DNA from: Candidatus Flemingiibacterium sp.
Lineage (GTDB): Bacteria > Bacillota > Clostridia > Oscillospirales > CAG-272
NCBI GenBank assembly: GCA_045634345.1
Contig: JAZRAB010000183.1
Location: 1 to 38,305 of the forward strand
Reading direction: 5' to 3'
Length of the DNA: 38,305 bases
The translations under genes were made by a program, and so were the position numbers. Positions within the stretch are counted from its first letter, which is position 1. Every line of letters begins with the position of its first letter. The notes under the pieces were generated by a model that saw nothing but the letters and a program-made list of their open reading frames with translations, made no database searches and had not been told where the DNA came from. Shown here in pieces: positions 132 through 17,674 of this stretch.

Positions 132-1016
132 ATGAAATCCGGTTATGTACCTGCGCTCGGCACGCCGCTAGATAAGGACGGCAATCTTGTTGCGGAAAGC
201 TTTAAAAAGCATATAGACGATCAGATAAACGCCGGTGCTGTTGGACTTCTCTGCATGGGAAGCATGGGTAAGGAAGCGTTTATCCGTGACGACGTTTACC
301 CCGAGGTCGCAAAAGCTGCGGTAGAGGCAAATAAAGGTCGCGTTCCGCTTTTTGTCGGAGCCATGGATACTTCGATAGCAAGAGTCAAGAGAAAAATCGC
401 TCCTCTTGAGGACCTTGATATAGACGGGTTTGTGTTTACAGCACCGTTTTATAGTGCTCCAAAGAGACACCAAATGATGAATTTCTTCCGCGGAGTAGCA
501 GCTCTTACAAAGCACAAGATACTGCTTTATGACCTGCCTTCTGTAACACAGGTTAAGATTACATACGATATGGTAATTGAACTTCTTGAAACTGTTCCGA
601 ACTTCGGTGGAATCAAGTCTGCTGATACGGTTATGTTCAGAAAGCTCAAGCTGAATCCGAATGTACCGAAGGACTTTGTTACTGTATATTCAGGACTCGA
701 CATGTGCGACGTTGCGTACAAGTGGGGAATTAACAACTGCCTTGACGGTATGTTCTCCTGTACTCCTTATAATAGCGGTAAGATGGTTCGTGCTATGGAA
801 GCCGGCGACTATATAACTGCTGCGGCTTGTCTTGACAATATTACAGGACTTCGTGATTGCTTTATTGCTAACGATTTGCTGCCCTCATTTACTGCAGCCA
901 TGAATATGCTCGGCTGCGAAGGTAACTTTGAACAGGACTATGACAATCCCCCAACAGAGACAGCAATCAAAAATGTACGTGCAGAGATGATTCGTATCGG
1001 CGAGATTAAAGCTTAA
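132..1016 (+). CDS. DapA/NanA-family class I (Schiff-base) aldolase/lyase
   Basis: 294 aa. It shows the family layout: GTPLDKDG..., GLLCMGSMGKEAF (equivalent to the GTTGE region), LYDLPSVTQ, and the GGIKSAD lysine motif. RBS aaggggg lies 8 nt upstream of the ATG. Confidence 0.8.
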   Translation: MKSGYVPALGTPLDKDGNLVAESFKKHIDDQINAGAVGLLCMGSMGKEAFIRDDVYPEVAKAAVEANKGRVPLFVGAMDTSIARVKRKIAPLEDLDIDGFVFTAPFYSAPKRHQMMNFFRGVAALTKHKILLYDLPSVTQVKITYDMVIELLETVPNFGGIKSADTVMFRKLKLNPNVPKDFVTVYSGLDMCDVAYKWGINNCLDGMFSCTPYNSGKMVRAMEAGDYITAAACLDNITGLRDCFIANDLLPSFTAAMNMLGCEGNFEQDYDNPPTETAIKNVRAEMIRIGEIKA

Positions 1017-1238: not shown

Positions 1239-2690
1239 GTGTCGATTTATCTGGCAATCGATTTAGGCACAACGGGCTGCCGCAGTATTTTGTTTGATGA
1301 TAAGCTGTGTCAGCTGGCTGCCTCATATGAGGAGTATGGGCTTATAACGCCCAGAGAAAAATGGACAGAACAGGATGCAGAGCTTTGGTGGGAGCTGACT
1401 CTGCGTACCTCTGAAAAAGCTATTTCCAAAGCGGGGATATCCGCTAAAGAAATAAAGAGTATTTCGATAAGCTCCCAGGGCATCACGGTCGTGCCTGTTG
1501 ATCGTGACCTGAAACCGCTTTGCAATGCGATGAACTGGCTTGACGTCAGAGCCGAGGAAGAAACGGCACAGATCGAAAAGGATTTTGGCGGAGAGAAAAT
1601 ATTTACACATACAGGCAAAAAAAATTCTCCGGGTTATACTCTGCCAAAGCTTCTTTGGTGGAAAAAACATGAGCCGGAAATGTTCAAAAGCGCATGGAAA
1701 TTCCTTATGCCGATGGATTTCCTTGTGGCAAGATTTACCGGCAACTGCATAACCGATCACAGTATGGCGTCGGGAACGCTGATGTATGACCTCAAGAATC
1801 TCGCTTGGAGTCGTGAGATACTCGATTTTTACGGTATTGACGAAGAAAAACTCCCGAGTCTTGCTTTTGCCGGAGAATCGGCAGGGGGCGTTCTTCCGGA
1901 GGTTGCCGAGAGACTTGGGCTCAGCAAGGACTGTGTTGTCGGAGTTGGTGCGCAGGATCAGAAGTGCGCGGCTTACGGTGTCGGACTGAGCGATGGAGTT
2001 ATGACTATTTCTCTCGGTACGGCGGCGGCTATCACGAAGCTGTGGAGAGAGGCAAATACCGAAACAAATACCAGCGTCGGCTGGTGCGGATATGTTGAGC
2101 CGAACTCTTTCGTCACCGAGGGCACGATCGGCACAGCAGGTACTTGCCTGCGTTTTACGCGCGATTTAATGTTTAAAGATGAAGATTACATTACCATAGA
2201 CCGGGAGGCAGAAGAAGCACGTGATCGCGGAAGCTCACTTATCTTTCTTCCGTATATGACAGGAACCTCCGAAACAGAGGATTCTCTTTCGGAGCAGGGC
2301 TGCTTTTACGGTGTAAACCTCGCCACGACAAGAGGCGATTTTGCGCTGGCGGTGATGGAGGGCATTGCTTTTCAGATGCGTGCCATTCTTGAAACGATGG
2401 AGGCTTATGGTAATATACATACATTGATACTTCTCGGTGGAGGAGCAAAGAGTAAGCTTTGGTCGCAGATAATTGCCGATGTCACCGGCATGCAGCTTAA
2501 GGTGCCAACGGTTATTGAGGCAGCAGGCGCCGGAGCCGCGAGACTTGCGGCAAAGGCTGTTGGTGATGATATACCGCCGCTTGAAACGGCAGGTGTTTAT
2601 ACACCGTCTGAACTGACCGAAGCATATGAGAGAAAATACAGAAAATTCAGAAATATCAAAGCGAAGCTTTGGGGGAATGAGGGAAAATGA
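1239..2690 (+). CDS. FGGY-family carbohydrate kinase (xylulokinase/glycerol-kinase-like)
   Basis: 483 aa with a GTG start preceded by aagagg. N-terminal YLAIDLGTTGCR phosphate-1 motif, and a C-terminal GGGAKSKLWSQIIADV motif typical of FGGY kinases. Confidence 0.85.
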   Translation: MSIYLAIDLGTTGCRSILFDDKLCQLAASYEEYGLITPREKWTEQDAELWWELTLRTSEKAISKAGISAKEIKSISISSQGITVVPVDRDLKPLCNAMNWLDVRAEEETAQIEKDFGGEKIFTHTGKKNSPGYTLPKLLWWKKHEPEMFKSAWKFLMPMDFLVARFTGNCITDHSMASGTLMYDLKNLAWSREILDFYGIDEEKLPSLAFAGESAGGVLPEVAERLGLSKDCVVGVGAQDQKCAAYGVGLSDGVMTISLGTAAAITKLWREANTETNTSVGWCGYVEPNSFVTEGTIGTAGTCLRFTRDLMFKDEDYITIDREAEEARDRGSSLIFLPYMTGTSETEDSLSEQGCFYGVNLATTRGDFALAVMEGIAFQMRAILETMEAYGNIHTLILLGGGAKSKLWSQIIADVTGMQLKVPTVIEAAGAGAARLAAKAVGDDIPPLETAGVYTPSELTEAYERKYRKFRNIKAKLWGNEGK

Positions 2691-3841
2691 TGACGGCAAT
2701 AAAAAATGCTCGTGTTGTACTTGAGCATGAAGTCATAGAAAACGGCGTTGTGCTGATAGAGAATGACCGCATCGCGGCAGTTGGTGCTGCCAACGAGGTT
2801 AAGATTCCCGAATCCGCAGACGTTTATGATGCCAATGGACTCTATGTAGGTCCGGGATTCGTTGATATCCACGTGCATGGTGGAAACGGACACCTCTTCT
2901 ATGAGAATCCGATTGCCGCGGCAGAGCACTTTTTGGCTCACGGAGAGACTACTGTTCTGGCAACGCTGTATTATGATCTCACCAAGGAGGAGTTCATTGA
3001 TTCCATTGAGCGCGTTAAAGCGGCGATGGGGCAGGGGATGGCAGGCAATGCTATAGGCGGCTTCTATATGGAAGGACCGTATATGAACCCCAAGTACGGT
3101 GCTCAAATTGAAAAAAACAAGTGGAGAGGCGAGATCAAGGCAGAGGATTACACCGATGTCGTTGAGGCGGCGGGCGAGCACGCCAAGGTCTGGGCAATAG
3201 CTCCTGAACGCGAGGGACTTGAACCGTTCCTCACAAAAGCAAAGCTTGTAAATCCGGGCGCAGTATTCGCGGTCGGACACAGTGAGGCAACGCCGGCACA
3301 GGTACAGGCTCTCAAAAAGTACGGGATCGGTCTGCAGACACACTGTATGAACGCAACCGGTCGCCGAACACCGACGAGCGGCGGCACACGAAGCTGTGGC
3401 CCTGATGAGGCATGTCTTATGGATAACGATATCTACTGTGAGATGATCTGCGATTCGCAGGGCATCCACGTTGCGGCAGATATGCAGCAGTTTATAATTT
3501 CAGTCAAGGGAATTGACAAGGTCGTGCTTATCTCCGACAGCTATGTCAGCGATGAGCCGACACCGCCGCAGTTTGCGCATATCACCGATCTGCAATTTGA
3601 CGCAACCGGCGGACTTTGCGGAAGCAAGCTTACGCTTGACAAGGCGTGCGCTAATGTTATGAAGCATATCGGATGCAGTATATGTGATGCGTTTCTTATG
3701 GCATCCCGCAATCCTGCGAGAGCTGTCGGAATGGGCAGCGAGCTTGGAAGCATCACAGTTGGCAAGAGAGCGGATATAGTTATTGTCGATGACGGATTTA
3801 ATGTTGAAAATGTTATGCTGAAAGGCAAACTTTTAAAATAA
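2687..3841 (+). CDS. NagA-like amidohydrolase (N-acetyl-amino-sugar-6-phosphate deacetylase family)
   Basis: 384 aa. GFVDIHVHGGNGH metal-binding motif near residue 60, and overall length and layout as in NagA. The ATGA overlap with the kinase stop indicates translational coupling. Confidence 0.75.
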   Translation: MMTAIKNARVVLEHEVIENGVVLIENDRIAAVGAANEVKIPESADVYDANGLYVGPGFVDIHVHGGNGHLFYENPIAAAEHFLAHGETTVLATLYYDLTKEEFIDSIERVKAAMGQGMAGNAIGGFYMEGPYMNPKYGAQIEKNKWRGEIKAEDYTDVVEAAGEHAKVWAIAPEREGLEPFLTKAKLVNPGAVFAVGHSEATPAQVQALKKYGIGLQTHCMNATGRRTPTSGGTRSCGPDEACLMDNDIYCEMICDSQGIHVAADMQQFIISVKGIDKVVLISDSYVSDEPTPPQFAHITDLQFDATGGLCGSKLTLDKACANVMKHIGCSICDAFLMASRNPARAVGMGSELGSITVGKRADIVIVDDGFNVENVMLKGKLLK

Positions 3842-3865: not shown

Positions 3866-5200
3866 ATGTTAAAAGCTGGAATGACAAGAGTTGATATCAC
3901 ACCTGAGCAGGGCATAGAGCTTGAAGGTTATCCTCACTATCCAAGATACAATACCGGTGCACACGATCCGCTGTATGCGGCTTGTATGTATCTTAATAAC
4001 GGCAAAGAAGAGATCGCAATGGTTACTCTTGACCTCTTGTTCTTCTCGAAGATATATGTTGCGGAAGTGCGCCGTAAAGTAGAAGAAAAGTGTGGTCTCA
4101 AGGGTGCTAACATCATGTTCAGTTGCTCACATACACACTCCGGTCCTGCGGCATCCGGCTTCATCGATGTTGAGGATCTTGAAAAGGGAAGAGAGCAGCC
4201 GATGGATTACATCAACAGTCTTATTGCAAAGCTTGTTGATATTATCGTTGAAGCAAAAACAAATGCATTTGACGGATATTTTGCTTACGGTACTGCTATC
4301 TGCGGTGCTGAATCGGGCGTTGGCGGAAATCGCCGTATGCCGGGCGGACCGCATGATCCGCTGGTAAGCGTTATGGCGGTAAAGGACACAAATGATGTCG
4401 TTCGCGGCGCACTTGTAAACTACACTCTCCATCCGACGTTTATTCACGAATGGAGCACTGTCTGTACAGCTGACTATCCTGCTTACCTCAAAATGCAGAT
4501 TGAAGAAGTATATCCGAATGCTCTTACCGGCTTCTCGCAGGGATGCTCTGGCAATCAGTCGAGCCGTTACTATCGTCAGGGCGAAAGCTATGATGAGGCA
4601 GAGCGCGTAGGACGCGCTATCGGTAAAGCGGCTAATACCGTTATCGCAAAGGCAAATTGGATGAACGACTTCGAGATTAAGACTGCGTCCAAGGAGATTG
4701 AGATCGATACTCGCAACTTCGGCACAGAGGAAGAGCTTGTTGCGCAGGTTGAAAGAGATACCGCAATTTATAAGGAGCTTTACGCAAAGTACGGTCAGTC
4801 CACTAACCGCGACGAATACTATCTCTGGCAGAATGCTAACCTCAAGTGCCTCGGCTCGGAAAATCAGCTCGGTTATGTACGTATTCAGAACAAGGGCATT
4901 AAGATCGAGATGCTCGAGGATGAAAATCCTGCTGAAATTCAGGTGTTCAACATTGGCGGAGTCGCTGTTGTCGGATTCCCGGGTGAGGCGTTCGTTGAGT
5001 ACGGCCTCTACATAAAGGCAATGGCAGGCTTCGGTATGGTCGTTGTAAACGAGCTTACCAACGGTGACCTTCCGGGCTATATGTACACACCAGAGTCTAT
5101 TGTTACCGGCGGTTACGAGACAGATACTTCCATGCTTGCCCCCGGATTCGGACGCAAGGTTGTTGATACTGTTCTTGAGGTCGCTGAGCTTGTAAAATAA
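3866..5200 (+). CDS. Hydrolase resembling the neutral/alkaline (non-lysosomal) ceramidase N-terminal domain family, paralogue 1
   Basis: 444 aa. Motifs seen: ITP..G..L.GYP, GAHDPLYA, CSHTHSGP and GGNRR.PGGPHDP. It is collinear with the next gene. The family call is from memory of PF04734-like proteins and is unverified. Confidence 0.55.
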   Translation: MLKAGMTRVDITPEQGIELEGYPHYPRYNTGAHDPLYAACMYLNNGKEEIAMVTLDLLFFSKIYVAEVRRKVEEKCGLKGANIMFSCSHTHSGPAASGFIDVEDLEKGREQPMDYINSLIAKLVDIIVEAKTNAFDGYFAYGTAICGAESGVGGNRRMPGGPHDPLVSVMAVKDTNDVVRGALVNYTLHPTFIHEWSTVCTADYPAYLKMQIEEVYPNALTGFSQGCSGNQSSRYYRQGESYDEAERVGRAIGKAANTVIAKANWMNDFEIKTASKEIEIDTRNFGTEEELVAQVERDTAIYKELYAKYGQSTNRDEYYLWQNANLKCLGSENQLGYVRIQNKGIKIEMLEDENPAEIQVFNIGGVAVVGFPGEAFVEYGLYIKAMAGFGMVVVNELTNGDLPGYMYTPESIVTGGYETDTSMLAPGFGRKVVDTVLEVAELVK

Positions 5201-5225: not shown

Positions 5226-6560
5226 ATGCTTAAGACCGGATTTGCAAGAACAGATATAACACCTCCCCGGGGACTTTCGCTGATGGGATATCCGCACTAT
5301 GACAGATTTAATACCGGTGCACACGATCCGCTTTATGCGGCTTGTATGTATCTCGACAACGGTGAAAACGCCGTTGCTATGGTAACGCTTGACCTCCTTT
5401 ATTTCTCAAAGCCGTATGTAATGAAGGTTCGCAAGCTCGCCGAGGAAAAATGCGGTATCAACGGTGAAAATATTATGATCACCTGCACGCATACACATTC
5501 CGGTCCACGTGCATATAAAATGGTCGCTGACGATGATCCTGCAACTGCTGACCCGAAGCGTGATGCATATGTTGAGGATATTATCGTTAAGATAGCTGAC
5601 CTTGTTGCAGAGGCGAAGAATACCGCATTTGACGGAGAATTTGCGTACAATGTGGCACTTTGCGGCGCAGAGCAGGGTGTTGGCGGCAACCGCCGTGTAC
5701 CCGGTGGACCACACGATCCGCTTGTTTCCGTAATGGCTGTAAAGGACATGAAGGGCGATCTTCGCGGCGTGCTCGTGAACTATTCGCTTCATCCGACATT
5801 TATTCATGAGTGGGTAAACGAATGTACCGCGGACTATCCTGCGTATGTTAAGATGCAGGTTGAGGAAACTTATCCCACTGCACTTTCCGGATTCGGTCAG
5901 GGTGCATCGGGCAATCAGTCGAGTCGTTATTACCGTAAGGGTGAGAGCTTCGACGAGGCAGAGCGCGTAGGACGCGCTATCGGTAAGGCTGCCTGTGAAG
6001 CTATCGCAAAGATGAAGTGGCTCTCTGACATCGAAATCAAGACAGTATCCACCACAATGGAGATGGAGCTTCGTGATTTTGGTCCGATTGAGGAACTCGA
6101 AAAGCAGGTTGAGCATGATACTGCCGTGTACAAGGAGCTTTATGCAAAGTACGGCAAGTCGGAAAAGCGCGAGGAATACCTGCTTTGGCAAAATGCAAAC
6201 CTTAAGTGCCTCGGCTCGGAGAACAAACTTGCGTATGCACTGAAGATAAAGAACGGCGAAAAGCTTGACCGTCTTCAGGACGAAAGCCCGGTTGAGCTTC
6301 AAGCGTTCAATCTCGGCGGACTCTGCGTGATCGGCGTTCCCGGCGAGATGTTCGTGGAATATGCGCTTTATGTTAAAGCAATGGCAGGCTTTGGTATGGT
6401 TATTTTCAATGAAACAACTAACGGCTGCTTGCCCGGATATGTACATACTCCGGAGGCGCTTACTTTTGGTGGATATGAGACAGATACCTCTGTAATTGGG
6501 GAGAAATTCGGTCAGCATATAGTTAAAAAAATACTCGATACAGTCGAAAAAATAAAATAA
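5226..6560 (+). CDS. Ceramidase-like hydrolase, paralogue 2 (tandem duplicate of 3866-5200)
   Basis: 444 aa, gap-free alignment by eye with the preceding protein at roughly two-thirds identity. Same motifs (CTHTHSGP, GGNRRVPGGPHDP). Confidence 0.55.
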   Translation: MLKTGFARTDITPPRGLSLMGYPHYDRFNTGAHDPLYAACMYLDNGENAVAMVTLDLLYFSKPYVMKVRKLAEEKCGINGENIMITCTHTHSGPRAYKMVADDDPATADPKRDAYVEDIIVKIADLVAEAKNTAFDGEFAYNVALCGAEQGVGGNRRVPGGPHDPLVSVMAVKDMKGDLRGVLVNYSLHPTFIHEWVNECTADYPAYVKMQVEETYPTALSGFGQGASGNQSSRYYRKGESFDEAERVGRAIGKAACEAIAKMKWLSDIEIKTVSTTMEMELRDFGPIEELEKQVEHDTAVYKELYAKYGKSEKREEYLLWQNANLKCLGSENKLAYALKIKNGEKLDRLQDESPVELQAFNLGGLCVIGVPGEMFVEYALYVKAMAGFGMVIFNETTNGCLPGYVHTPEALTFGGYETDTSVIGEKFGQHIVKKILDTVEKIK

Positions 6561-6578
6561 TTTAGGAGGATCATCACA

Positions 6579-7541
6579 ATGATTAACGGACCAGACAACT
6601 TCACATTTAAACCAGCAGATTTTTATCCTTTCAGGGATACTGAGGATATTGCTCGTGTTCGTGCAATTACCAAGGAAGACATTATCGCAATGAACGGCAA
6701 GCATCCCACTTCTCCTACAATGCAGATTCATCTGCCCCGTCCCGAGGAAATGGCGATCATAATGGTTGCCGATATTGTACAGCGTATCGTCGATTCGGAC
6801 AGATATGACAAGAAGTGTGTCATGATTATGCCGAACCCCAATACCGGTTATATTCAGGCGGCACACATTCTCAAAAAGCTGAAGGTGAATTGCCGCAATG
6901 TCAAGTTCTATATGATGGACGAGTGGGCAGACGAGGACGGCAATATAGCACCTCTCTCCTATAAGCAGGGCTTCGGTAATGCTTTCTACCGTTTCATGGT
7001 ATCGGAGATTCTCGAGCTCGGTTTCAAGGAAGAAAACTTTATCTATCACAGCAATAAGATTACCCCCGACTATTCGAAGATGCTCGAAGCTGACGGTGAG
7101 GCTGATATTGTTTACTCCGGTCCCGGATGGCCCGGTCATCTCGCATTTATTGATCCTGTTGAGGATTGGTATAAGCCTACCATGGAAGAGTATCTCGCGC
7201 AGGGCGCAAAGGTTGCAAGTCTCCATCCGCTTACTATCGCACAGAACTCCCTCCACGGCTCATTTGGTTGCTCCGGCGATATCGCAAAGGTTCCGCCGAA
7301 GGGGGCAATGATGGGTCCGAGAGACGCTATGAAGGCAAAAGAGGTTTACGACTTCCACGGAATCACTACCGCAGGTACCCATGTTACTTGGCAGAGACTG
7401 ACTTCTCGCCTCTGCATTTTCGGCAAGCCGAGCCAGGAAGTTCCCGCATCCATACTCCAACTCCGCGATAAGCCTACTCATGTATTCATGAGCGAGCAGA
7501 ATGCGGCTACAATTGAACCTGATTACTTCTTCCAGTATTGA
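6579..7541 (+). CDS. NagB/6-phosphogluconolactonase-superfamily sugar-phosphate isomerase/deaminase-like protein
   Basis: 320 aa. Segments align by eye to E. coli NagB: MMDEW (NMDEY), SGPGWPGHLAFIDP (GGVGNDGHIAFNEP) and PPKGAMMG (PKYALTVG). It carries a long N-terminal extension. Confidence 0.6.
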   Translation: MINGPDNFTFKPADFYPFRDTEDIARVRAITKEDIIAMNGKHPTSPTMQIHLPRPEEMAIIMVADIVQRIVDSDRYDKKCVMIMPNPNTGYIQAAHILKKLKVNCRNVKFYMMDEWADEDGNIAPLSYKQGFGNAFYRFMVSEILELGFKEENFIYHSNKITPDYSKMLEADGEADIVYSGPGWPGHLAFIDPVEDWYKPTMEEYLAQGAKVASLHPLTIAQNSLHGSFGCSGDIAKVPPKGAMMGPRDAMKAKEVYDFHGITTAGTHVTWQRLTSRLCIFGKPSQEVPASILQLRDKPTHVFMSEQNAATIEPDYFFQY

Positions 7542-7564
7542 TTTTGTGGAGAAAGGTTGCATAT

Positions 7565-8497
7565 ATGATTTCATGTACGGAATTTATACCTGCTTATAGC
7601 GAGCTTTTTACTTACCTTGAGGACAATTACGGCAGAGCCGAGGTTGATCGCTTCTGGAAGTATCTTTTTGAGCCGACGGGCAACGGGATTCCACTTATCA
7701 ATTTCGTGAAAAAGGAAGGTATCCGAGGCTGCTTCTCATATTGGTCAGGAACCCTCACCGAGGAAGCCTCGGACTGCACTATTTATCTTAACGAAAAAGC
7801 CGGCTGGTTCATGAATGTTATGTATAAATGTCCCTCGAAGGGAAGACTCCTTAAATTGAAAGATGAGATCGGAATTGAACCGTATCACGACTACTGTCTG
7901 CACTGTGACTGCTATCGCGCGGCAATAGAACAGGTAGGACTTAAGTACATGTACAATTTCCAAGGCGTCGATCATGCTGCTTGCTCACTCATTATATACG
8001 ATCCAAAGGTTTTCGACGGACGCATAATAATCGATGAGAATACGGAAAAGCTCGAGGTGCGTGCTTCGGAGAACGAGTACTTCCACCGCGATTTCCACAG
8101 CAGCATGAATATGGGTATTCATTACCTCGGTGAAAATTACGGTCTTACGGTGGTTGAGGATTATCTTGCACGCTATACCAAAAACGTGTACAGAAAAGAG
8201 ATTGCGGATATCGAAAAGGGCGGCATTGATGCTATTGCGGATAAGATATGCGATACCTACGAAAAAGAAAAATCTCCCGACGCAGTAGAGCTTGTGCGTG
8301 ACGGTGCAAGGCTTACCGTCAATGTGAAGTATTGCCCGGCAGTAAAGCATCTGAAAGCAACCGGACGAGTTGTTTCGCCGTGGTATCGTTATACTACAGA
8401 AGTTGTGATGGAAACTCTCGCAAAAGCGGCGGGGGCAAGCTTTAAAATGCTGTCTTACGACGAAGAGAACGGTGCGGCTTGCTACACTTTTGAGTGA
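7565..8497 (+). CDS. Uncharacterised Cys-motif protein, paralogue 1 (two-module; possible ATC-hydrolase/V4R-like fold)
   Basis: 310 aa counted from ATG 7565. An aaagg RBS-like element precedes it and the start context is identical to that of its paralogue, so the track's upstream start at 7538 is rejected. Conserved KCPSKG...YC.HCD...AAC signature in the N-terminal half, and YCP...AACYTFE in the C-terminal half. Confidence 0.6.
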   Translation: MISCTEFIPAYSELFTYLEDNYGRAEVDRFWKYLFEPTGNGIPLINFVKKEGIRGCFSYWSGTLTEEASDCTIYLNEKAGWFMNVMYKCPSKGRLLKLKDEIGIEPYHDYCLHCDCYRAAIEQVGLKYMYNFQGVDHAACSLIIYDPKVFDGRIIIDENTEKLEVRASENEYFHRDFHSSMNMGIHYLGENYGLTVVEDYLARYTKNVYRKEIADIEKGGIDAIADKICDTYEKEKSPDAVELVRDGARLTVNVKYCPAVKHLKATGRVVSPWYRYTTEVVMETLAKAAGASFKMLSYDEENGAACYTFE

Positions 8498-8553
8498 GCG
8501 ATTTTGTAATGTTATTATTTGTAAAAGTGATTTGTTGAAAAGAGGTTGTATAT

Positions 8554-9486
8554 ATGATTTCATGTACGGAATATATTCCTGCATACAGTGAGTTTTTTAC
8601 CTATCTTGATGAAACCTACGGTAAAGAGGAGTTAGACCGTTTCTGGGAGTATCACTTTGCACCTACGGGTAAGGGTATACGTCTCATCAATTTCCTTAAG
8701 GCAGAGGGGCTAAAGGGCTGTTATACTTACTGGTCTGCCGCACTCAAAGAGGAGGCTGCGGACGTTACCATCTATTTGAACGAAAAAGCAGGATGGTTTA
8801 TGACTGATATGCACAAATGCCCTTCAAAAGGTAAATTGCTTAAGTTGAAGGATGAGTTTGGTTTTGTGCCTTATCACAGTTACTGTATGCACTGCGACGG
8901 CTATCGCGCCGCTGTGGAGCAGGTCGGACTTAAATATATGTACGATTTTGTCGGCTGTGACCGCGCAGCATGCCGTCTTATCATTTACGACCCTAAGGTG
9001 TTCAATGAACGGGTAATCGTTGACGAAAACACAAAGATACTCGACATCCGAGCCTCCGAGAACGAATACTATCATCTTGATTTTCACCGCAGCATGAACA
9101 GCGTAATCAATTATGTCGGCGAAAATCACGGTATTTCGGCGGTCGAGGATTATCTCGGACGTTACACAAGAAATGTTTGTTTGAAACAGATGACCGATAT
9201 CGAAACTCGCGGTATCGATGCGATTGCCGACAAGATACGTGATACATATGAGAAGGAAAAATCTCCCGACGCAGTAGAGCTTGTGCGCGATGGCGGAAAG
9301 CTTACCGTCAATGTGAAGTATTGCCCGGGTGTTAAGTATCTTAAGGATACGGGACGTATTGTTTCACCGTGGTATCGCTATACTACAGAAGTTGTGATGA
9401 AGGCTCTTTCTGAAAAAGCCGGTGTAAGCTTTAAAATGCTGTCTTACGACGAGGAAACAGGTGCGGCTTGCTACACTTTCGAATAA
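8554..9486 (+). CDS. Uncharacterised Cys-motif protein, paralogue 2 (tandem duplicate of 7565-8497)
   Basis: 310 aa, collinear with the previous protein at roughly 70 percent identity by eye. It shares the MISCTE start and the Cys pattern. Confidence 0.6.
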   Translation: MISCTEYIPAYSEFFTYLDETYGKEELDRFWEYHFAPTGKGIRLINFLKAEGLKGCYTYWSAALKEEAADVTIYLNEKAGWFMTDMHKCPSKGKLLKLKDEFGFVPYHSYCMHCDGYRAAVEQVGLKYMYDFVGCDRAACRLIIYDPKVFNERVIVDENTKILDIRASENEYYHLDFHRSMNSVINYVGENHGISAVEDYLGRYTRNVCLKQMTDIETRGIDAIADKIRDTYEKEKSPDAVELVRDGGKLTVNVKYCPGVKYLKDTGRIVSPWYRYTTEVVMKALSEKAGVSFKMLSYDEETGAACYTFE

Positions 9487-9501: not shown

Positions 9502-9540
9502 AAAAACGCTTCGGATTTAAGTGCTGAAGCGTTTTTGTTT
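9502..9540 (+). terminator. Rho-independent terminator closing the 1239-9486 operon
   Basis: aacgcttc ... gaagcgtt stem followed by tttttgttt. Confidence 0.7.
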
Positions 9541-9588
9541 GTACGAATCTGAAAAATCGCAAAATAAAAAATTTTTATCAAAAACCCC

Positions 9589-9617
9589 TTTACAAATGGG
9601 AGAAAGTGTAGTATAAT
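9589..9617 (+). promoter_or_regulatory. Sigma-70-type promoter for the ABC transporter operon
   Basis: TTTACA (9589-9594), 17-nt spacer, TATAAT (9612-9617). Confidence 0.6.
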
Positions 9618-9677
9618 ACATTTGTCAAGATAACACTTTACCAAATTACAAAAGTAAAAAAGAAGGAGACTAACATC

Positions 9678-10508
9678 ATGAAACGCATTTTAACACTTGT
9701 ACTTGCATTTGCACTTATTCTCACATTGGCTGCCGGATTTACTTCGTGCGGCGAAGAAACAAGCGATTGGGCAACTATCGAGGAGCGCGGATATTTTGTC
9801 TGCGGTATCACCGTTTATGCGCCTATGAACTATTTTGATGATGACGGAAATCTCGTTGGTTTTGATACCGAATTTGCGCAGGCACTCGCAGCAGAGCTTG
9901 GACTTGATGCAAAATTCCAGGTTATCAGCTGGCCTAACAAGTATCTGGAGCTTAACTCCGGTGCTATTGACCTCATCTGGAACGGCTTCACATACGGTAT
10001 GGAGAGCGATGGCGTTTCACGTACCGAGTATGTTGACTTTACATATTCCTACCTCGAAAACCGTCAGTGCCTTATCACCAAGGCTGACCGCGTTGACGAG
10101 CTTAATTCGGCTGAATCCCTTGCAGGCCTGAAGGCTGTTGCAGAGGGCGGTTCTTCCGGCGAGGGTGTTGCAATCGAGCTTTGCGGTGATGAAAATAATG
10201 TTACCACATTCACTTCTCAGGCAGCCGCTCTTATGGAGCTTTCCGCAGGTAATGCAGACTTTGCTGTTATTGACTACCAGATGGCAAAAGCAATGGTTGG
10301 CGTTGGTGACTACACCGATCTTGCTATTAACGAGGCAGTACAGCCCGAGTCCGAGGTTTATGCTATCGGCGCACGCAAGGGCAGTGACTTTACCGCAAAG
10401 GTGAACGAAGCAATCAAGGCTCTTTCCGAAAACGGAAAGCTCGCTGAGCTTGCTGAGAAGTACGGCCTTACCAACGATCTTATCGCTGATATCGGAAGCG
10501 AGTCTTAA
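9678..10508 (+). CDS. Polar amino-acid ABC transporter substrate-binding lipoprotein
   Basis: 276 aa. Signal peptide with lipobox (AAGFTSCG) and family 3 SBP features (DLIWNGFTY, AVIDYQMAK). RBS aaggag. Confidence 0.8.
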   Translation: MKRILTLVLAFALILTLAAGFTSCGEETSDWATIEERGYFVCGITVYAPMNYFDDDGNLVGFDTEFAQALAAELGLDAKFQVISWPNKYLELNSGAIDLIWNGFTYGMESDGVSRTEYVDFTYSYLENRQCLITKADRVDELNSAESLAGLKAVAEGGSSGEGVAIELCGDENNVTTFTSQAAALMELSAGNADFAVIDYQMAKAMVGVGDYTDLAINEAVQPESEVYAIGARKGSDFTAKVNEAIKALSENGKLAELAEKYGLTNDLIADIGSES

Positions 10509-11167
10509 TGGATCTTTTAACTGTTACCAAAACGCTGTTCGAGGGGTTTGGCGTTACTTGCCTGCTGTTTATTTTAACACTCGTTTTCTCGCTCCCCCTC
10601 GGACTTGTGATCTCGTTTGGCTCAATGGCTAAATTTAAGCCGCTTGCATGGCTGACACGCACATTTGTGTGGATTATACGCGGAACACCGCTTATGCTGC
10701 AGCTATGCGCCATATTCTATGTTCCCGGAATAGTTTTCAACGTACAGCTTTTCGGCGGTGATAACGGACGCTTCACGGCAGCACTTGTGGCGTTTGTAAT
10801 AAACTACGCCTGCTATTTTTCCGAGATATACCGCGGCGGTATTGAGGGTATTCCGAGAGGGCAGTACGAGGCGGCACAGGTGCTTGGTATGACTGCAAAG
10901 GAGACTTTTTTCACGGTTATTCTCATGCAGGTCGTCAAGCGTATTCTTGCGCCGATAAGCAATGAGGTCATTACACTCGTCAAGGATACCTCTCTCGCGC
11001 GTGTTATTGCGGTGGCAGAGATATTCTACATAAACGATATGTCATTTCTGCAACGCGGACTCGTATGGCCGATGTTCTACATCGCAGTATTCTTCCTCAT
11101 CTTCGTCGGAGTGCTTACGATCTTCTTCGGATGGTGCGAGAAGAAGCTGGACTATTATAAGGTGTGA
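10508..11167 (+). CDS. Amino-acid ABC transporter permease (His/Glu/Gln/Arg/opine family)
   Basis: 219 aa, multi-TM, with the EAA-like loop (YEAAQVLGMT). Its start overlaps the SBP stop. Confidence 0.8.
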   Translation: MDLLTVTKTLFEGFGVTCLLFILTLVFSLPLGLVISFGSMAKFKPLAWLTRTFVWIIRGTPLMLQLCAIFYVPGIVFNVQLFGGDNGRFTAALVAFVINYACYFSEIYRGGIEGIPRGQYEAAQVLGMTAKETFFTVILMQVVKRILAPISNEVITLVKDTSLARVIAVAEIFYINDMSFLQRGLVWPMFYIAVFFLIFVGVLTIFFGWCEKKLDYYKV

Positions 11168-11176
11168 GGTGGCGAC

Positions 11177-11983
11177 ATGGCTTTTCTTGAAGTACGAAAC
11201 TTAAAAAAGCATTTCGGAAACACTTCCGTCCTTCACGGTATCGACTTTTCAATGGAAAAAGGCGAGGTCGTGGCAATAATCGGCTCATCGGGCGGTGGAA
11301 AAACTACATTCCTTCGCTGTCTCAATTTTCTTGAAATGGCAAACGAAGGCACAATCGATATTGATGGCGGCTTTCATTTCGATGCCAATGCCGCATACAG
11401 TAATGCCGAGATTCGTGCAATGCGCTTGAAGATGGGATTGGTATTTCAGTCGTTCAATCTTTTTCCGCAGTATACGGCGCTTGAGAATGTTTATCTGCCG
11501 CTTCAACTGCGTACCAAAGAGAAGATACGCGGTGAACTTCCATTCGGACGAGCAAGACGCAATGCGTATATCGAAGCTCAGAAGGAAAATCAAGATATTG
11601 CCAAGAGTATTCTCACAGAGGTGGGGCTTGGCGATAAAATGGGCAACTATCCTTGTCAGCTTTCTGGTGGACAACAGCAGAGAGTTGCTATTGCACGCGC
11701 GCTTGCACAAGAGCCGGCGATACTTTGCTTCGACGAGCCGACCAGTGCGCTTGACCCCGAGCTTACGGACGAGGTTTTGCGTGTCATCAAAGAGCTTAAG
11801 GACCGCGGACGCACCATGCTCGTGGTTACTCATGAGATGGAGTTTGCGCGAAATGTTGCCGATAGAGTAGTCTTTTTTGCAGACGGACTTATCGAGGAAG
11901 AGGGCGCACCCGCCGATATCTTCACAAATCCGAAATCCGAAAAGACTGCGGCATTCCTGCATCACGGCGCAGGGAATATATAA
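11177..11983 (+). CDS. Amino-acid ABC transporter ATP-binding protein
   Basis: 268 aa. Walker [10 protein letters not shown], signature [15 protein letters not shown], Walker [13 protein letters not shown] and H-loop VVTHEM. It has an extra segment of about 18 aa between the Q-loop region and the signature motif, relative to E. coli GlnQ as I recall it. Confidence 0.85.
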
Positions 11984-12486: not shown

Positions 12487-13869
12487 ATGAAACTGAATTA
12501 TAAACGCACTGTTCTTGTCGGCTTTGCATTTTTCCTTATCTGCACTTTCTGGCAGGCGTATGACACCGTGATCCCGAAAATTCTTACCGATAAATTTGGT
12601 ATGTCGCAGAGTCTTTCGGGTGCGGTTATGGCACTTGATAATGTTCTCGCAGTTATACTTCTGCCTATCTTTGGCGCAATATCCGACAGACACAATGGAA
12701 AGCGCGGAAGACGCACGCCATTTGTCCTTGTCGGTACCGTTCTTGCCGCTATAGCATTTGTCGGACTCTCATTTGTGGATAACGTGCAGCTTGCCGCTAT
12801 TGAGAAGGGGGTTGCCGAAATCGGTCTTGAGGCGACTGAAGCGCGTCTTGCGTATGCTTGGGAGATGACATGCAGTAATCCCGTGATCCTTATATTTTTT
12901 ATGTTGATGCTTCTAGTTGTGCTTCTCTCAATGGCGATATTCCGTTCTCCGGCGGTTGCGCTTATGCCTGACGTTACACCTAAACCGCTTCGCTCAAAGG
13001 GCAATGCTGTAATCAACCTGATGGGCGCTGTGGGCGGAATCCTTGTGCTTGCCCTCGGTATCATCTTTGGCACGGGCAAGCCGGAAAATACATTTATGAG
13101 CTATACGCCATTCTTCGCGGTTATTGCGGCGGTGATGCTTGGTGCGCTTGCTATATTCTCGCTTACGGTCAAAGAAAAGAAATGGGCGGCGGAGGCTGAT
13201 GCTGTAAATGATAAGATGGATGACTCCGAAGACATACGCAGTGTAACCCAAGAAAAACGCTCGCTTACTAAGGGGGAGCTTAAATCCCTGCTTTTCATTT
13301 TGGCATCTGTGGTGCTTTGGTATATGGGCTATAACGCGGTTTCAAGTAAATACTCGGTCTATGCGGGAGAGGTGTTAAAGCTTGATTATAATCTCACTCT
13401 TATGGTGGCTCAGGCAGCGGCAATCGTATCGTATATTCCCGTTGGTATCATTTCGCAGAAATTTGGGCGTCGTAAAACTATTTTGGCTGGTGTTGCCATG
13501 CTTGGCATTGCTTTCGGTTGTGCGTACTTCATGGGCGAGGGAAGCAATATCTGGGTGATGAACGCACTGTTTGCTCTTGCAGGAATCGGTTGGGCGACGA
13601 TCAATGTGAATAGTTATCCCATGGCCGTTGAACTTGCAAGCTCGGGCGATACCGGCAAATATACGGGATACTACTACACTGCATCTATGGCGGCACAAAC
13701 CGTTACGCCGATACTTTCGGGATTCTTCATGGACATAAATCTTAAAACTCTTTTCCCGTATGCAACTATATTTGTAGCACTTGCGTTTGTGACTATGCTT
13801 TTTGTTCGCCATGGCGATATTAAAACAGATTCCAAAAAGGATCTGCTCGAGCATTTTGATGTGGAGTAA
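12487..13869 (+). CDS. MFS transporter (GPH/SLC45-like)
   Basis: 460 aa with about 12 predicted TM segments. SDRHNGKRGRRTPF loop motif after TM2 and a long charged central loop. Confidence 0.75.
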   Translation: MKLNYKRTVLVGFAFFLICTFWQAYDTVIPKILTDKFGMSQSLSGAVMALDNVLAVILLPIFGAISDRHNGKRGRRTPFVLVGTVLAAIAFVGLSFVDNVQLAAIEKGVAEIGLEATEARLAYAWEMTCSNPVILIFFMLMLLVVLLSMAIFRSPAVALMPDVTPKPLRSKGNAVINLMGAVGGILVLALGIIFGTGKPENTFMSYTPFFAVIAAVMLGALAIFSLTVKEKKWAAEADAVNDKMDDSEDIRSVTQEKRSLTKGELKSLLFILASVVLWYMGYNAVSSKYSVYAGEVLKLDYNLTLMVAQAAAIVSYIPVGIISQKFGRRKTILAGVAMLGIAFGCAYFMGEGSNIWVMNALFALAGIGWATINVNSYPMAVELASSGDTGKYTGYYYTASMAAQTVTPILSGFFMDINLKTLFPYATIFVALAFVTMLFVRHGDIKTDSKKDLLEHFDVE

Positions 13870-13873
13870 TAAA

Positions 13874-14677
13874 ATGGCGATTATAATAATATCTATTGTA
13901 CTGCTTGCAGGACTCTATATGTTTGTGTTGATACGTCCGAGATTACATGCTCGCCATGATAAACAGCTCGACACCGACTATGCGCATCGGGGACTCCACC
14001 GCAGAGGAGTGCCGGAAAATTCACTTGCGGCATTTGAGCGTGCTGTGGTACACGGCTATGGAATTGAGCTTGATGTTCAGCTTTCACGCGACGGAGAGGT
14101 CATGGTATTTCATGATTATACTCTTGAGAGAATGACCGGCAGGGAAGGACGGCTCTGCGATTTTTGCGCGGATGAGCTTTCATCAATGCGCCTTGCCGAT
14201 ACAGATGAAACCATACCGCAGCTTCGTGATGTGCTAGGACTTGTAAATGGGCGTGTTCCACTTCTTATTGAATTGAAAGGCGAAAGCGCCGATGTTTCGC
14301 TTTGTGAGCCGCTTTCTCGTCTGCTTGGGGAATATGATGGAGCTTTTTGCATAGAATCCTTCAATCCGATACTGCTTGGAGAGATGGCGAAGTGTATGCC
14401 GCAGGTCTATCGCGGCATACTGTATACCAACCTTTGCCGCGATAAAAAGAAATATTCGCTTCTCAATATCGCGCTTACCGGTATGGTTACCAATATTATT
14501 GCACGCCCTGATTTTATTGCATATAATGAAAAATACCGGGGCTCTATGTTGTTATGGCTTATTACGCATTTGTACCGTCCAAACAAATATTGCTGGACAG
14601 TAAAAAGCAAAGCGGATTACGATATTGCAAAGAGAAATGAGGAATTTGTTATTTTTGAGAATTTCAAACCCGAATAG
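13874..14677 (+). CDS. Membrane-anchored glycerophosphodiester phosphodiesterase family protein
   Basis: Start moved to ATG 13874 (ggag RBS 7 nt upstream), which avoids overlap with the MFS gene. N-terminal TM helix, then the GDPD motifs AHRGL..PENSL.AF and GIELDVQLSRDGEVMVFHD. Confidence 0.75.
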   Translation: MAIIIISIVLLAGLYMFVLIRPRLHARHDKQLDTDYAHRGLHRRGVPENSLAAFERAVVHGYGIELDVQLSRDGEVMVFHDYTLERMTGREGRLCDFCADELSSMRLADTDETIPQLRDVLGLVNGRVPLLIELKGESADVSLCEPLSRLLGEYDGAFCIESFNPILLGEMAKCMPQVYRGILYTNLCRDKKKYSLLNIALTGMVTNIIARPDFIAYNEKYRGSMLLWLITHLYRPNKYCWTVKSKADYDIAKRNEEFVIFENFKPE

Positions 14678-14855
14678 TATTGTTCAAGGTTATGAGCACG
14701 GTAAAAATGAGAAAGCATTGTCGTATTCAACAAACTTTGAGCGAGCTTTTTGTGGAGTTTGCCTGAGGGCGAAAGCGATTTGTGAAAATGCAATGAAATG
14801 TGCTATTAAATACGGTTTTGAGGAGCATTTGCTTGTATACTTTTAAGGCGAATTT

Positions 14856-14864
14856 TGCTATAAT
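14856..14864 (+). promoter_or_regulatory. Extended -10 element (TGcTATAAT) upstream of the surface protein gene
   Basis: tgctataat at 14856-14864. No good -35 at 17 nt, so this is an extended -10 type only. Confidence 0.4.
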
Positions 14865-14878
14865 TACAATGTAATGAA

Positions 14879-14908
14879 GGGAATATTCTGCGGCCGCAGA
14901 ATATTTCC
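14879..14908 (+). other. 5'-leader hairpin centred on GCGGCCGC
   Basis: 24-nt perfect palindrome aatattctgcggccgcagaatatt (14882-14905), plus two flanking G-C pairs and one G-T wobble. Confidence 0.5.
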
Positions 14909-14973
14909 TAATATCAGATTCGAGCGTATTCGTTCGAACTCTAATAAAATTTTTTTCGAAAGGACGAAAAATT

Positions 14974-16119
14974 ATGAAGAAATTTCTTGCATTCGCTATT
15001 GCGGCATTAATGATGGTTTCCTGCTTCGCAGTAACCACTGTTGCTGCAGATGGTGCTCTTAAGATGGGTACCGCAACAGTTGACGGTATTCTCGACGATG
15101 TCTACACCGGTTCCGTTATGATCAAGGAGGCAGGTAAGGATGCTTCTCAGAACCAGCTTCCCTCCGAGTGGAACGGTTCCTGCTACGCAGATATTTATCT
15201 CATGTATGACAACGAGTATCTTTACATTTTTGCACATGTAACAGACGATGATGTTCTTTCAAGAGGAAGAGCATATGCTATCGGCACCGTAAACCCTAAC
15301 GACAATGATGTAATTGAGTTCAGACTCGTTTTCAACGGCGTTGATGACGACCAGTTCAAGGTATCTGTTGATGCTTTCGGTTATCAGCTTTTCGGTCTTC
15401 CGTGGCACTATGACATCATAGACTACAGCACCTTCGAATATGCAGTAAAGACTGATGATGTTGCAGGTACATATGATGTTGAGGTTGCGATCCCCTGTAC
15501 CAAGGGTACTCTTGACCTTATAAAGTACGGTACACTTGGCTTTGCATTCCAGATCAACGATATAGACTACAACGGCAGAACCACTCAGTTCTCGCTCTAC
15601 AGCTCCAATGCGGCTAACGTATGGACCAGTGCTAAGTACAGCCTTTCCGGTGAAAAAGCTGTTGCCGGTTCCGGTAGCACAGTAAGCGCAGGTCCTATCG
15701 AAGGTACCCTCGCAGCTCCCGAGACCACCGCAGCTCCTGAAACTTCTGCAGCTCCCGAGACTACTGTAGCACCCGAGACCACCGCGGCTCCTGAAACTAC
15801 TGCGGCTCCCGACACCACTGCTGAGGTTGAAGATACTACTGCAGAGGCAGAGGATACCCCTGCTGAGGTTGAAGACACCACTGCAGAGGCAGAGGATACC
15901 ACTGCTGACGTTGAAGACACCACTGCAGAAGCAGAGGATACCACTGTAGAGGACGACAAAGACACCGACGCTGATACAACTGAAGCTCCGAACACTACCG
16001 CAGCTACAGGCACTGACGATGAGGGTGGAATCAATCCTATCGCAATCGTTGGAATCGCAGCAGCAGTTATTGTAATTGCAGCAGTTGCAGTTATCCTTGC
16101 AAAGAAAAAGAAGAACTAA
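14974..16119 (+). CDS. Secreted, membrane-anchored surface protein with a CBM9/DOMON-like domain and a Thr/Glu/Ala/Pro-rich repeat stalk
   Basis: 381 aa. It has a signal peptide, a DGILDDVY...YLMYDNEYLYIFAHVTDDDV...FAFQINDID pattern typical of CBM9-like domains, tandem repeats, and a C-terminal TM helix plus KKKKN stop-transfer. Confidence 0.65.
   Translation: MKKFLAFAIAALMMVSCFAVTTVAADGALKMGTATVDGILDDVYTGSVMIKEAGKDASQNQLPSEWNGSCYADIYLMYDNEYLYIFAHVTDDDVLSRGRAYAIGTVNPNDNDVIEFRLVFNGVDDDQFKVSVDAFGYQLFGLPWHYDIIDYSTFEYAVKTDDVAGTYDVEVAIPCTKGTLDLIKYGTLGFAFQINDIDYNGRTTQFSLYSSNAANVWTSAKYSLSGEKAVAGSGSTVSAGPIEGTLAAPETTAAPETSAAPETTVAPETTAAPETTAAPDTTAEVEDTTAEAEDTPAEVEDTTAEAEDTTADVEDTTAEAEDTTVEDDKDTDADTTEAPNTTAATGTDDEGGINPIAIVGIAAAVIVIAAVAVILAKKKKN
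15712..15945 (+). repeat. In-frame tandem repeats: 6 x 18 nt (AAPETT) followed by 6 x 21 nt (AE[VA]EDTT)
   Basis: Read directly: 15712-15819 encodes AAPETT-like units and 15820-15945 encodes AEVEDTT/AEAEDTT-like units. Confidence 0.9.
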
Positions 16120-16131
16120 TCTTCTGTAAAT

Positions 16132-16163
16132 AAAAAAGTGCTTGCGGCCGCAAGCACTTTTTT
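16132..16163 (+). terminator. Rho-independent terminator of the surface protein gene
   Basis: aaaaaagtgcttgcggccgcaagcactttttt is a perfect palindrome with A and T runs, so it is bidirectional in form. Confidence 0.8.
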
Positions 16164-16194
16164 ATGGCGCTAGCCATTGGAATGGCACGTGCTA

Positions 16195-16637: not shown

Positions 16638-16666
16638 AAAAAGCAAAGCAGATAACGGCAATACTG

Positions 16667-17551: not shown

Positions 17552-17674
17552 AGTATCCCTCCATCATGAAGTAATAAATACATAATACCATAACAATGTT
17601 ACGGATTGGTTAACAAAAGAACAGGAAAAAGTGAATTAGTTGATTATGCAAATATATTATTTTTCTGTTTAGGA

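Follow-up and report, generated by a model that had tools for sequence, protein, structure and literature searches.

Tandem two-module cysteine proteins closing an amino-sugar-type operon of gut Clostridia are predicted to form a divergent branch of the V4R/Bet3/ATC-hydrolase superfamily

The locus described here raises the question of what two adjacent cysteine-containing proteins, neither of which carries a family name, contribute to the operon in which they are encoded. The genes, designated copy 1 and copy 2, lie on a contig of Candidatus Flemingiibacterium sp. (JAZRAB010000183.1, assembly GCA_045634345.1), the whole 38,305 nucleotides of which were analysed and are referred to as the window, and they are the last two genes of a tightly packed operon on the forward strand. 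A preliminary description, made from the DNA letters, had reported a tandem pair of 310-amino-acid (aa) proteins, and both open reading frames (ORFs) were found as it stated; the products are 74% identical and 86% similar over a gap-free alignment (nucleotide identity 74%) and are probably cytosolic, a signal peptide or membrane segment not being evident in either sequence. The genes and the two modules of each product are as follows:

7565 to 8497, forward strand: copy 1 gene, ORF from the ATG at 7565 to the stop at 8497, 310 aa
7565 to 8029, forward strand: N-module of copy 1, residues 1-155
8045 to 8494, forward strand: C-module of copy 1, residues 161-310
8554 to 9486, forward strand: copy 2 gene, ORF from the ATG at 8554 to the stop at 9486, 310 aa
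8554 to 9018, forward strand: N-module of copy 2
9034 to 9483, forward strand: C-module of copy 2

The internal two-module architecture suggested in the preliminary description proved to be real. Comparison of an N-module profile with a C-module profile using hhalign gave a probability of 97.8% (E = 7e-13), and the alignment paired C89-P90 with C257-P258, as well as the two ...AAC... segments, with one another. When the modules were aligned to a sister family of approximately 145 aa (alignment A4, reached via protein P0253, which has the C-N module order), C140 and C306 shared one column. By this comparison each protein is an internal duplication of a module of approximately 150 aa. Stand-alone modules are also common, with many N-module-only proteins of approximately 145 aa and many C-module-only proteins of approximately 155 aa.

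The AlphaFold2 (AF2) model of copy 2 had a predicted local distance difference test (pLDDT) score of 88.7 and a predicted template modelling (pTM) score of 0.81, and the N-module of copy 2 modelled on its own had a pLDDT of 89.1. DSSP assigned the order H-H-H-H-E-E-H-H-E-E (four helices, a beta-hairpin, two helices and a beta-hairpin) to both modules. Foldseek matched the whole model to Bet3/TRAPPC subunits, to the V4R domains of PoxR, MopR and DmpR, to H-NOX and to BcsD, and 34 of the first 35 PDB matches to the N-module alone were PoxR, MopR, DmpR, TRAPPC/Bet3 or BcsD; the best of these was PoxR (5fru; E 3.5e-3, probability 1.00, template modelling (TM) score of approximately 0.5, 17% identity), TM scores for the N-module matches ranging from 0.4 to 0.5. 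The models place two homologous modules of the V4R/Bet3/ATC-hydrolase (H-NOX-like) fold in each protein and, by analogy, each chain corresponds to a single-chain version of the dimer normally formed by the V4R/Bet3 fold. The HNOB, V4R and ATC hydrolase domains have been described as related, V4R and ATC hydrolase having a cluster of three cysteines in common (Galperin et al. 2018, PMC5847659).

A resemblance to the Pfam family ATC_hydrolase (PF14196) had been pointed out in the preliminary description, and it held as a superfamily link but not as membership of the family. In a Pfam scan copy 2 matched PF14196 with an E-value of 0.039 and a score of 15.2 bits, below the gathering threshold of 28.1 bits, copy 1 gave no match, and no match was given by the isolated modules of the two window proteins. 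Matches to PF14196 were obtained for 8 of 43 C-modules (best E 0.0064) and 3 of 17 N-modules (best E 0.019), E-values that mean scores under the 28.1-bit threshold, and PF14196 was the sole Pfam family to recur for both isolated modules. The link itself runs through A4, in which 17 of 25 members match PF14196 (best E 2e-7) and several are already annotated with it: hhalign probabilities against A4 were 99.6% for the C-module profile (E 2e-24) and 97.9% for the N-module profile (E 4e-13). On these profile comparisons the window proteins are divergent ATC_hydrolase relatives within the V4R/H-NOX-like superfamily and are not PF14196 members by the Pfam criterion. PF14196 was founded on a hydrolase (PMC5847659). 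Neighbours of the atcA or atcC type were not seen in any locus examined.

Relatives of the proteins form at least 881 clusters at 90% identity, all of them unnamed or labelled 'hypothetical protein' and none with a precomputed Pfam domain, and a profile search of 50%-identity representatives recovered 535 family members. Neither protein matched an NCBIfam family, and PDB sequence and profile searches with the full protein and with the N- and C-module profiles gave nothing significant, the only faint hints being a TRAPP match at E of approximately 1 and CxHC look-alikes in protein disulfide isomerase. V4R (PF02830), TRAPP (PF04051) and HNOB (PF07700) were absent from all Pfam scans, even at E-values up to 1, and an Rfam scan of the two genes and their immediate surroundings gave no RNA element. 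Literature searches on a ceramidase, DUF386 and FGGY cluster, on nonulosonic-acid catabolism, on AtcB and on neuraminic acid cyclisation returned nothing on the family or the operon. The statement that the proteins have no assigned function was correct; they are given a name by no sequence match in Pfam, NCBIfam or the PDB. All 80 retrieved genome loci came from metagenome-assembled genomes of Clostridia from animal guts and similar habitats (Oscillospiraceae, Faecousia, Flemingiibacterium, Christensenellaceae, Lachnospiraceae and Acutalibacteraceae), and the split-gene relatives lie beside similar operons on metagenomic contigs whose very different composition and gene content suggest that other phyla may be represented. 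As judged by profile comparison, this unnamed and sizeable family is a new two-module branch of the known V4R/Bet3/ATC-hydrolase superfamily.

The N- and C-modules always co-occur, whether as fused N-C proteins, as the fused C-N form (P0253) or as overlapping C-then-N genes, and such interchangeable order is as expected of two dimer halves. The N:C pairing is ancient and obligate, and the obligate pair is that of the N- and C-modules, not that of the paralogues. Fusions and gene order also tie the modules to particular enzymes. P0267 (600 aa) joins a full-length ceramidase-like domain, 25% identical end to end to that of the window neighbour (E 2e-30), to a C-module; the next gene at its locus encodes a stand-alone N-module (E 2e-56) and is followed by genes for a DegT aminotransferase, a PIG-L deacetylase, a DHDPS-type lyase and an AKR. 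In P0228 and P0232 a C-module comes after a long N-terminal region that has no Pfam match. An N-module is fused to DUF386/YhcH (E approximately 1e-22) in P0148, P0192 and P0163, and at locus L089 such an N-module plus DUF386-type gene comes after a C-module gene. At locus L090 the order is DHDPS, C-module, N-module (with overlapping stop and start) and a divergent ceramidase-like gene, and minimal clusters consist only of a DHDPS gene plus adjacent C- and N-module genes. In the A4-type systems, found on contigs with very different and apparently G+C-rich coding sequence, an ATC_hydrolase-like gene overlaps a 325-aa gene that opens with an N-module (MLGCQDF…, E 3e-31), and this pair adjoins genes for DHDPS, two DegT aminotransferases, GFO_IDH_MocA oxidoreductases, an HpcH aldolase, an SDR and an SSF transporter. 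Across the architectures of the 535 representatives neither a DNA-binding domain nor a signalling output domain was found, and a transcription-factor role was rejected because none of these architectures has a DNA-binding domain.

Two further observations concern these variant forms. The N-module partner in the A4-type systems (L092, 7435-8412; L095, 7438-8424) has an extra C-terminal region of approximately 180 aa with no family match, and the fused C-N protein P0253 ends in the same extension. The cluster that holds the ceramidase-like plus C-module fusion (L086, 8001-17803) encodes, in addition to the N-module, DegT, PIG-L, DHDPS and AKR proteins, a 323-aa protein and an amino-acid permease, with URO-D-like, HpcH aldolase, GFO_IDH_MocA and SDR genes divergent from it; this variant may be useful for guessing the substrate class.

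The cysteines were then compared across the family. The eight that had been described as conserved (positions 4, 56, 89, 111, 114, 140, 257 and 306) are common to both paralogues, and among 39 close homologues all are invariant except C306; the pattern does not hold family-wide. In N-modules of the wider family C4, C89, C111 and C114 were present in 34 of 34 sequences, C140 and H113 in 33 of 34 and C56 in 25 of 34, while in C-modules C257 was present in 62 of 70 and C306 was not conserved. The N-module had been said to keep four cysteines; it contains six of the shared ones, five of which are family-invariant. Four of these are predicted to form a metal site:

7829 to 7984, forward strand: copy 1 residues 89-140 (CPSKG…YCxHCD…AAC), predicted Zn(Cys)4 site C89/C111/C114/C140, with H113
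8818 to 8973, forward strand: copy 2 residues 89-140, same predicted Cys4 site

These four residues, with the spacing C-x21-C-x2-C-x25-C, align one-to-one with the invariant C86, C104, C107 and C131 of A4, and in the AF2 model C89 closes strand 2, C111 and C114 open helix D and C140 lies in strand 4. Thor-TRAPPC3 binds zinc through four cysteines, and PoxR is said to do so similarly (PMC10933270), while the zinc site of DmpR is formed by Cys151, Glu172, Cys177 and Cys185 (PMC7264223); in the V4R/TRAPPC3 fold this zinc site ties sheet and helix D together and contributes to the ligand cavity (PMC10933270, PMC7264223). Since homologous V4R/TRAPPC3 structures hold zinc at this position, C89, C111, C114 and C140 most likely form a structural Zn(Cys)4 site, which would hold the sheet against helix D and give a ligand cavity its shape. 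A structural zinc is also more likely here, by the same analogy, than an iron-sulfur (Fe-S) cluster, which had been considered as a candidate: no classical Fe-S motif (e.g. CxxCxxC…CP) occurs in the N-module, no Fe-S family was matched in Pfam or NCBIfam, and both the cysteine spacing and the homologous zinc sites make a classical Fe-S site unlikely. The C-module has Y/T where the N-module has the CxxC; it keeps the first cysteine and, in the window proteins, also the fourth. The loss of the site in one module and its retention in the other parallel its loss in mouse TRAPPC3 (PMC10933270) and its presence in Thor-TRAPPC3.

Conservation outside the metal site is largely of polar residues. In the C-module Y172, H174, F177, H178, E235 and P258 are near-invariant (H174, H178 and E235 at 96-99%) and D176 is present in 60 of 70 sequences, and the invariant polar residues of the N-module outside the Cys4 site include C4, E6, Y11 and E13 in the homologue alignments. 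The segment C4-x-E6-F7 of the N-module aligns with H174-x-D176-F177 of the C-module and with A3-P-D5-F6 of A4. In the V4R/TRAPPC3 fold the dimer interface is formed by the N-terminal segments and the cavity entrances lie near it (PMC10933270), so that, by analogy, the polar segments C4-x-E6-F7 and H174-x-D176-F177 may meet in one composite site.

The remaining genes of the operon and the features that follow it are:

132 to 1016, forward strand: DHDPS/NanA-family lyase, first gene of the operon (NCBIfam DapA and NanA matches below cut-off)
1239 to 2690, forward strand: FGGY-family sugar kinase, a conserved neighbour (NCBIfam match)
2687 to 3841, forward strand: NagA-like N-acetylhexosamine-6-phosphate deacetylase (TIGR00221, E 8e-57, below cut-off)
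3866 to 5200 and 5226 to 6560, forward strand: two tandem ceramidase-like zinc amidases, 64% identical (PF04734; PDB neutral ceramidase)
6579 to 7541, forward strand: NagB-like 320-aa protein, distant relative of glucosamine-6-phosphate deaminase (TIGR00502, E 7e-7; PDB, E approximately 0.01)
9502 to 9541, forward strand: terminator-like hairpin and T-run right after copy 2 (13-bp stem, -18.4 kcal/mol, z = -5.0 against shuffles)
9589 to 9617, forward strand: promoter-like (sigma-70-like) site, 11/12 match
9589 to 11983, forward strand: polar amino-acid-type ABC transporter, including the promoter-like site, with the binding protein at 9678-10508 (SBP_bac_3 match)
10508 to 11167 and 11177 to 11983, forward strand: permease and ATPase of this transporter, roles read from the translations alone

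The hairpin had been overlooked by a simple terminator scan owing to its 9-nucleotide (nt) loop and was found by reading and folding the sequence; as it is followed by a promoter-like site, the two cysteine-protein genes would end one transcription unit and the transporter would start another. Neighbours were counted within 10 kb in 82 independent related loci, many of them incomplete: a DHDPS-type gene was present in 43, a NagA-like gene in 39, ceramidase-like and SDR genes in 37 each, FGGY in 33, NagB-like in 31, DUF386 in 26 and AKR in 23. At least one of the genes so counted was found in 40 of the 43 loci that have long flanks on both sides. GFO_IDH_MocA genes, like those for SDR and AKR, are also frequent neighbours. 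The DHDPS-type lyase is the most widely conserved, being present even in the minimal clusters; the NagB-like gene, for which no Pfam match was obtained, lies immediately upstream of the cysteine-protein gene in 15 loci; and the same gene order was found in metagenome contigs. The N+C pair belongs to the fixed gene set of an operon for the catabolism of amino sugars or amino-sugar acids, such catabolism fitting the ties to de-N-acylases, amine-removing enzymes and a pyruvate-type lyase.

Several observations were made on the neighbouring genes and on the rest of the window. The ceramidase-like paralogues (444 aa each) correspond to the N-terminal part of PF04734, carry a THTHSGP/SHTHSGP motif and do not have the C-terminal domain found in true neutral ceramidases. 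The NagB-like gene is duplicated or triplicated at loci L006, L008, L040 and L080. A 440-aa upstream protein at locus L018 was considered as a diverged ceramidase-like protein and rejected; it is also unrelated to a 445-aa ORF of the window (17802-19139, forward strand), which has no Pfam match and lies beside an AraC-type regulator gene (16667-17551, reverse strand). A 616-aa ORF at 5406-7256 (reverse strand) lies antisense to the genes for the ceramidase-like and NagB-like proteins and is almost certainly not a real gene but a shadow of these well-supported forward-strand genes. The stretch 12487-24195 is carbohydrate-related (MFS transporter, GDPD phosphodiesterase, CBM9-like protein, GDSL esterase and GH2 glycosidase). 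A 397-aa protein at 19243-20436 (reverse strand) matches F420-0:gamma-glutamyl ligase (CofE, PF01996) with an E-value of 7e-59, which is unusual for gut Clostridia, and a single tRNA gene at 31916-31989 (reverse strand) is the sole Rfam match of the window.

The history of the tandem pair was assessed by comparing the two copies with one another and with P0003, the nearest database homologue of copy 1, which was used as its orthologue. The ATG at 7565 was taken as the start of copy 1 because all homologues begin at MISCTEF, which also ruled out the TTG at 7538. The duplicated start region and the long identical runs of the preliminary description were both present, and its suggestion of gene conversion in the 3' third was supported. 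The features concerned are:

7548 to 7583, forward strand: ribosome-binding-site (RBS)-like GGAGAAAGG and the 23-nt start region of copy 1 (copy 2 counterpart, 8541-8572)
8216 to 8494, forward strand: homogenised tract, copy 1 codons 218-310 (identity to P0003 versus copy 2; synonymous differences)
9205 to 9483, forward strand: homogenised tract, copy 2 codons 218-310, the partner (identical runs; synonymous differences)

The start regions share 23 identical nt, ATATATGATTTCATGTACGGAAT, at 7561-7583 and 8550-8572, which span the start codon, and in both genes an RBS-like purine run lies ahead of this stretch. Identical runs of 32 nt (8267-8298 and 9256-9287) and 29 nt (8311-8339 and 9300-9328), together with others of 27, 21 and 20 nt, lie within the 3' third. 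When codon columns were shuffled the longest run was significant (p = 0.011), and the observed number of runs of at least 20 nt was reached in 0 of 5000 shuffles. Where both copies encode the same amino acid, identical codons were used in 66% of cases in codons 218-310 compared with 48% upstream (Fisher p = 0.012), and the proportion of synonymous differences (pS) was 0.85 (saturated) in codons 1-217 and 0.51 in codons 218-310. Identity of copy 1 to P0003 was 96% over residues 1-105, 86% over residues 106-217 and 74% over residues 218-310, while identity between copy 1 and copy 2 over residues 218-310 was 83%; the combination of low identity to P0003 with high identity between the copies indicates that the 3' third was homogenised between the paralogues. 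The ratio of non-synonymous to synonymous divergence (dN/dS) between the paralogues was approximately 0.05 overall and 0.11 in the homogenised tract, and both copies retain every residue that is invariant across the 39 homologues, from which it follows that both are under purifying selection. The tandem pair is a recurrent, lineage-specific duplication under purifying selection; in the window the ceramidase-like gene is duplicated as well, and having two cysteine proteins probably widens the substrate range.

What the pair does in the operon can be answered tentatively. The favoured reading, to which a probability of about 0.42 is assigned, is that the N:C pair would serve as an ATC-hydrolase-like catalytic or substrate-handling subunit of the operon's pathway and of a putative complex to which it is presumably bound together with the ceramidase-like, DUF386 and DHDPS enzymes. 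Once its N-acyl group is gone, a 2-keto-amino sugar acid tends to close into a cyclic imine carboxylate with a ring of five or six members; compounds of just this kind are handled by DHDPS-family enzymes, and the carboxylate-bearing ring that AtcB opens is five-membered and contains a C=N bond. In the mechanism proposed, the pair would bind, in a putative ligand cavity, a nitrogen-containing intermediate arising around the N-deacylation and lyase steps, a plausible candidate being a deacylated keto-amino sugar acid in its cyclic imine or hemiaminal form, which would be chemically analogous to the thiazoline-carboxylate ring opened by AtcB. It would then either open this intermediate or hand it to neighbouring enzymes, at a reaction site that may be a composite of the pseudo-symmetric N-terminal segments, C4-x-E6-F7 with H174-x-D176-F177-H178, plus E235. 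Several points weigh against such a role: all structurally characterised members of the fold (V4R sensors, Bet3, H-NOX and BcsD) are binders or scaffolds and not enzymes; the Foldseek E-values are modest (1e-3 to 1e-1), though the matches are very consistent; H174 and H178 are not conserved in A4, so that the proposed composite site would be branch-specific; the closeness of C4, H174, D176, H178 and E235, and likewise of the four cysteines, is taken from the topology only; and the type of transporter varies by locus (polar amino-acid ABC, Opp-type, CUT2 sugar ABC or SSF).

The first of these points leads to an alternative that is nearly as likely, namely that the pair is a non-catalytic ligand-binding or scaffold subunit. 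As an N:C pseudo-heterodimer it would bind a metabolite of the pathway or just dimerise, and would unite the ceramidase-like amidase and the DUF386 or DHDPS enzymes in a single complex that serves channelling or allosteric control. All solved relatives bind or scaffold (Bet3 in TRAPP; V4R in sensing phenols; PMC10933270), and a C-module fused to a ceramidase-like domain, an N-module fused to DUF386 and the constant co-occurrence of the modules together resemble a heterodimerising adaptor. However, the many invariant polar residues off the zinc site (C4, E6, Y11, E13, Y172, H174, D176, H178 and E235) exceed what a hydrophobic-pocket binder usually needs, minimal clusters hold nothing beyond the DHDPS gene and the adjacent C and N genes, and the nearest family by sequence takes its name from an enzyme. 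A stronger version of the catalytic role, which is unlikely as it stands, would make the N:C pair a new type of enzyme on the V4R/Bet3 fold, with an interface active site of C4 plus H174/D176/H178/E235 (e.g. a Cys-His-Asp-type hydrolase or a ring-opening lyase, complexed with the ceramidase-like N-deacylase and the DHDPS-type lyase) supplying a missing step of N-acylated amino-sugar-acid catabolism; the substrates would be sialic-acid-like or nonulosonic, and the pathway would be widespread, operating in gut Clostridia and other phyla. It had also been proposed that the two tandem copies might form a heterodimer. V4R and TRAPPC3 proteins do dimerise, two or three full-length tandem copies recur (L010, L017, L032, L054, L058, L062 and the window, with a divergent pair in L079), and a homogenised 3' third could preserve a shared interface; against this, the gene is single-copy in 72 of 82 related loci, on which ground a paralogue heterodimer was rejected as a requirement, an N:C pair is already present within each chain, and copy number tracks the ceramidase-like and NagB-like duplications only loosely, so that the tandem copies are quite improbable as an obligatory functional unit. 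In bacteria that are strict anaerobes, the cysteines themselves might point to a redox or iron protein, with Fe(Cys)4 or Fe-S in the N-module or a C4/C56 redox switch as in the V4R protein MsvR; such a protein would transfer electrons or sense redox state for the SDR, AKR or other oxidoreductase steps. Five invariant cysteines and a histidine within approximately 140 residues, a weak PknG rubredoxin match for one N-module, the frequent SDR, AKR and GFO_IDH_MocA neighbours and the reported cysteine-dependent, redox-sensitive DNA binding of the V4R-containing regulator MsvR (PMC3729527) would all suit such a function, which is nevertheless very improbable given that the spacing fits the zinc site of the same fold and not a classical CxxCxxC, that the homologous sites in solved structures contain zinc, that the C-module lost its site while the protein was retained, and that no flavoprotein or ferredoxin partner is conserved nearby. 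Least credible of all is a metallochaperone delivering zinc to the NagA-like and ceramidase-like metallo-amidases: the protein has a cysteine-rich metal site, adjoins two zinc amidases and is fused to one, but its closest and oldest tie is to the non-metallo DHDPS-type lyase, a buried Cys4 is typical of structural and not of exchangeable zinc, and it shows no GTPase or known chaperone features.

If the pair is a catalytic subunit, as favoured here, it would bring to two the enzymatic activities known for a fold that otherwise senses and scaffolds. The operon is often found among Clostridia of animal guts (Oscillospiraceae, Faecousia, Christensenellaceae and Lachnospiraceae), and through it the family could help to identify a nutrient used by gut bacteria; placement in the superfamily yields testable residues, a predicted structural zinc site and predicted partners (ceramidase-like amidase, DUF386 and DHDPS-type lyase).

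Of the known systems, PF14196 and its member AtcB, the L-2-amino-thiazoline-4-carboxylate hydrolase of Pseudomonas, share with the window proteins the CP…CxHCD…C cluster and a D/E-F motif at the start of helix 1. The window proteins differ from PF14196 in having two modules instead of one, a C-module without the CxxC and an N-module with the extra invariant C4, and their context is amino-sugar catabolism, not the cysteine pathway of atcABC. The best structural match to the N-module is to the V4R domains of the phenol-responsive NtrC-type activators PoxR, MopR and DmpR, which are dimers formed via N-terminal segments, with an enclosed ligand cavity; the sheet and helix D of these domains are connected by a zinc site whose spacing resembles that of the site predicted in the N-module. 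In contrast to these, the window proteins have no AAA+ or DNA-binding output and no Pfam V4R match, their N-module has Cys4 where DmpR has Cys3Glu, their N:C pseudo-dimer is covalently linked, their invariant residues are polar and not aromatic, and they belong to a family encoded in a catabolic operon and fused to enzymes.

The two-layer alpha/beta fold is likewise that of TRAPPC3 (Bet3)/TRAPPC6 and of the archaeal Thor-TRAPPC3 homodimer, and in TRAPPC3/TRAPPC6 diverged paralogous modules pair as a heterodimer, as the N- and C-modules are predicted to do here; those proteins are palmitate-binding scaffold subunits of a Rab guanine-nucleotide exchange factor, whereas the present ones come from a bacterial metabolic operon with no TRAPP partners. 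A last likeness, by description only, is to MetOD1 of methanogen response regulators, an unnamed branch of the HNOB/V4R/ATC-hydrolase group with a three-cysteine cluster, for which an enzymatic role has been suggested (Galperin et al. 2018, PMC5847659). MetOD1 is archaeal and fused to receiver domains, whereas the window family is bacterial and is fused to, or paired with, catabolic enzymes.

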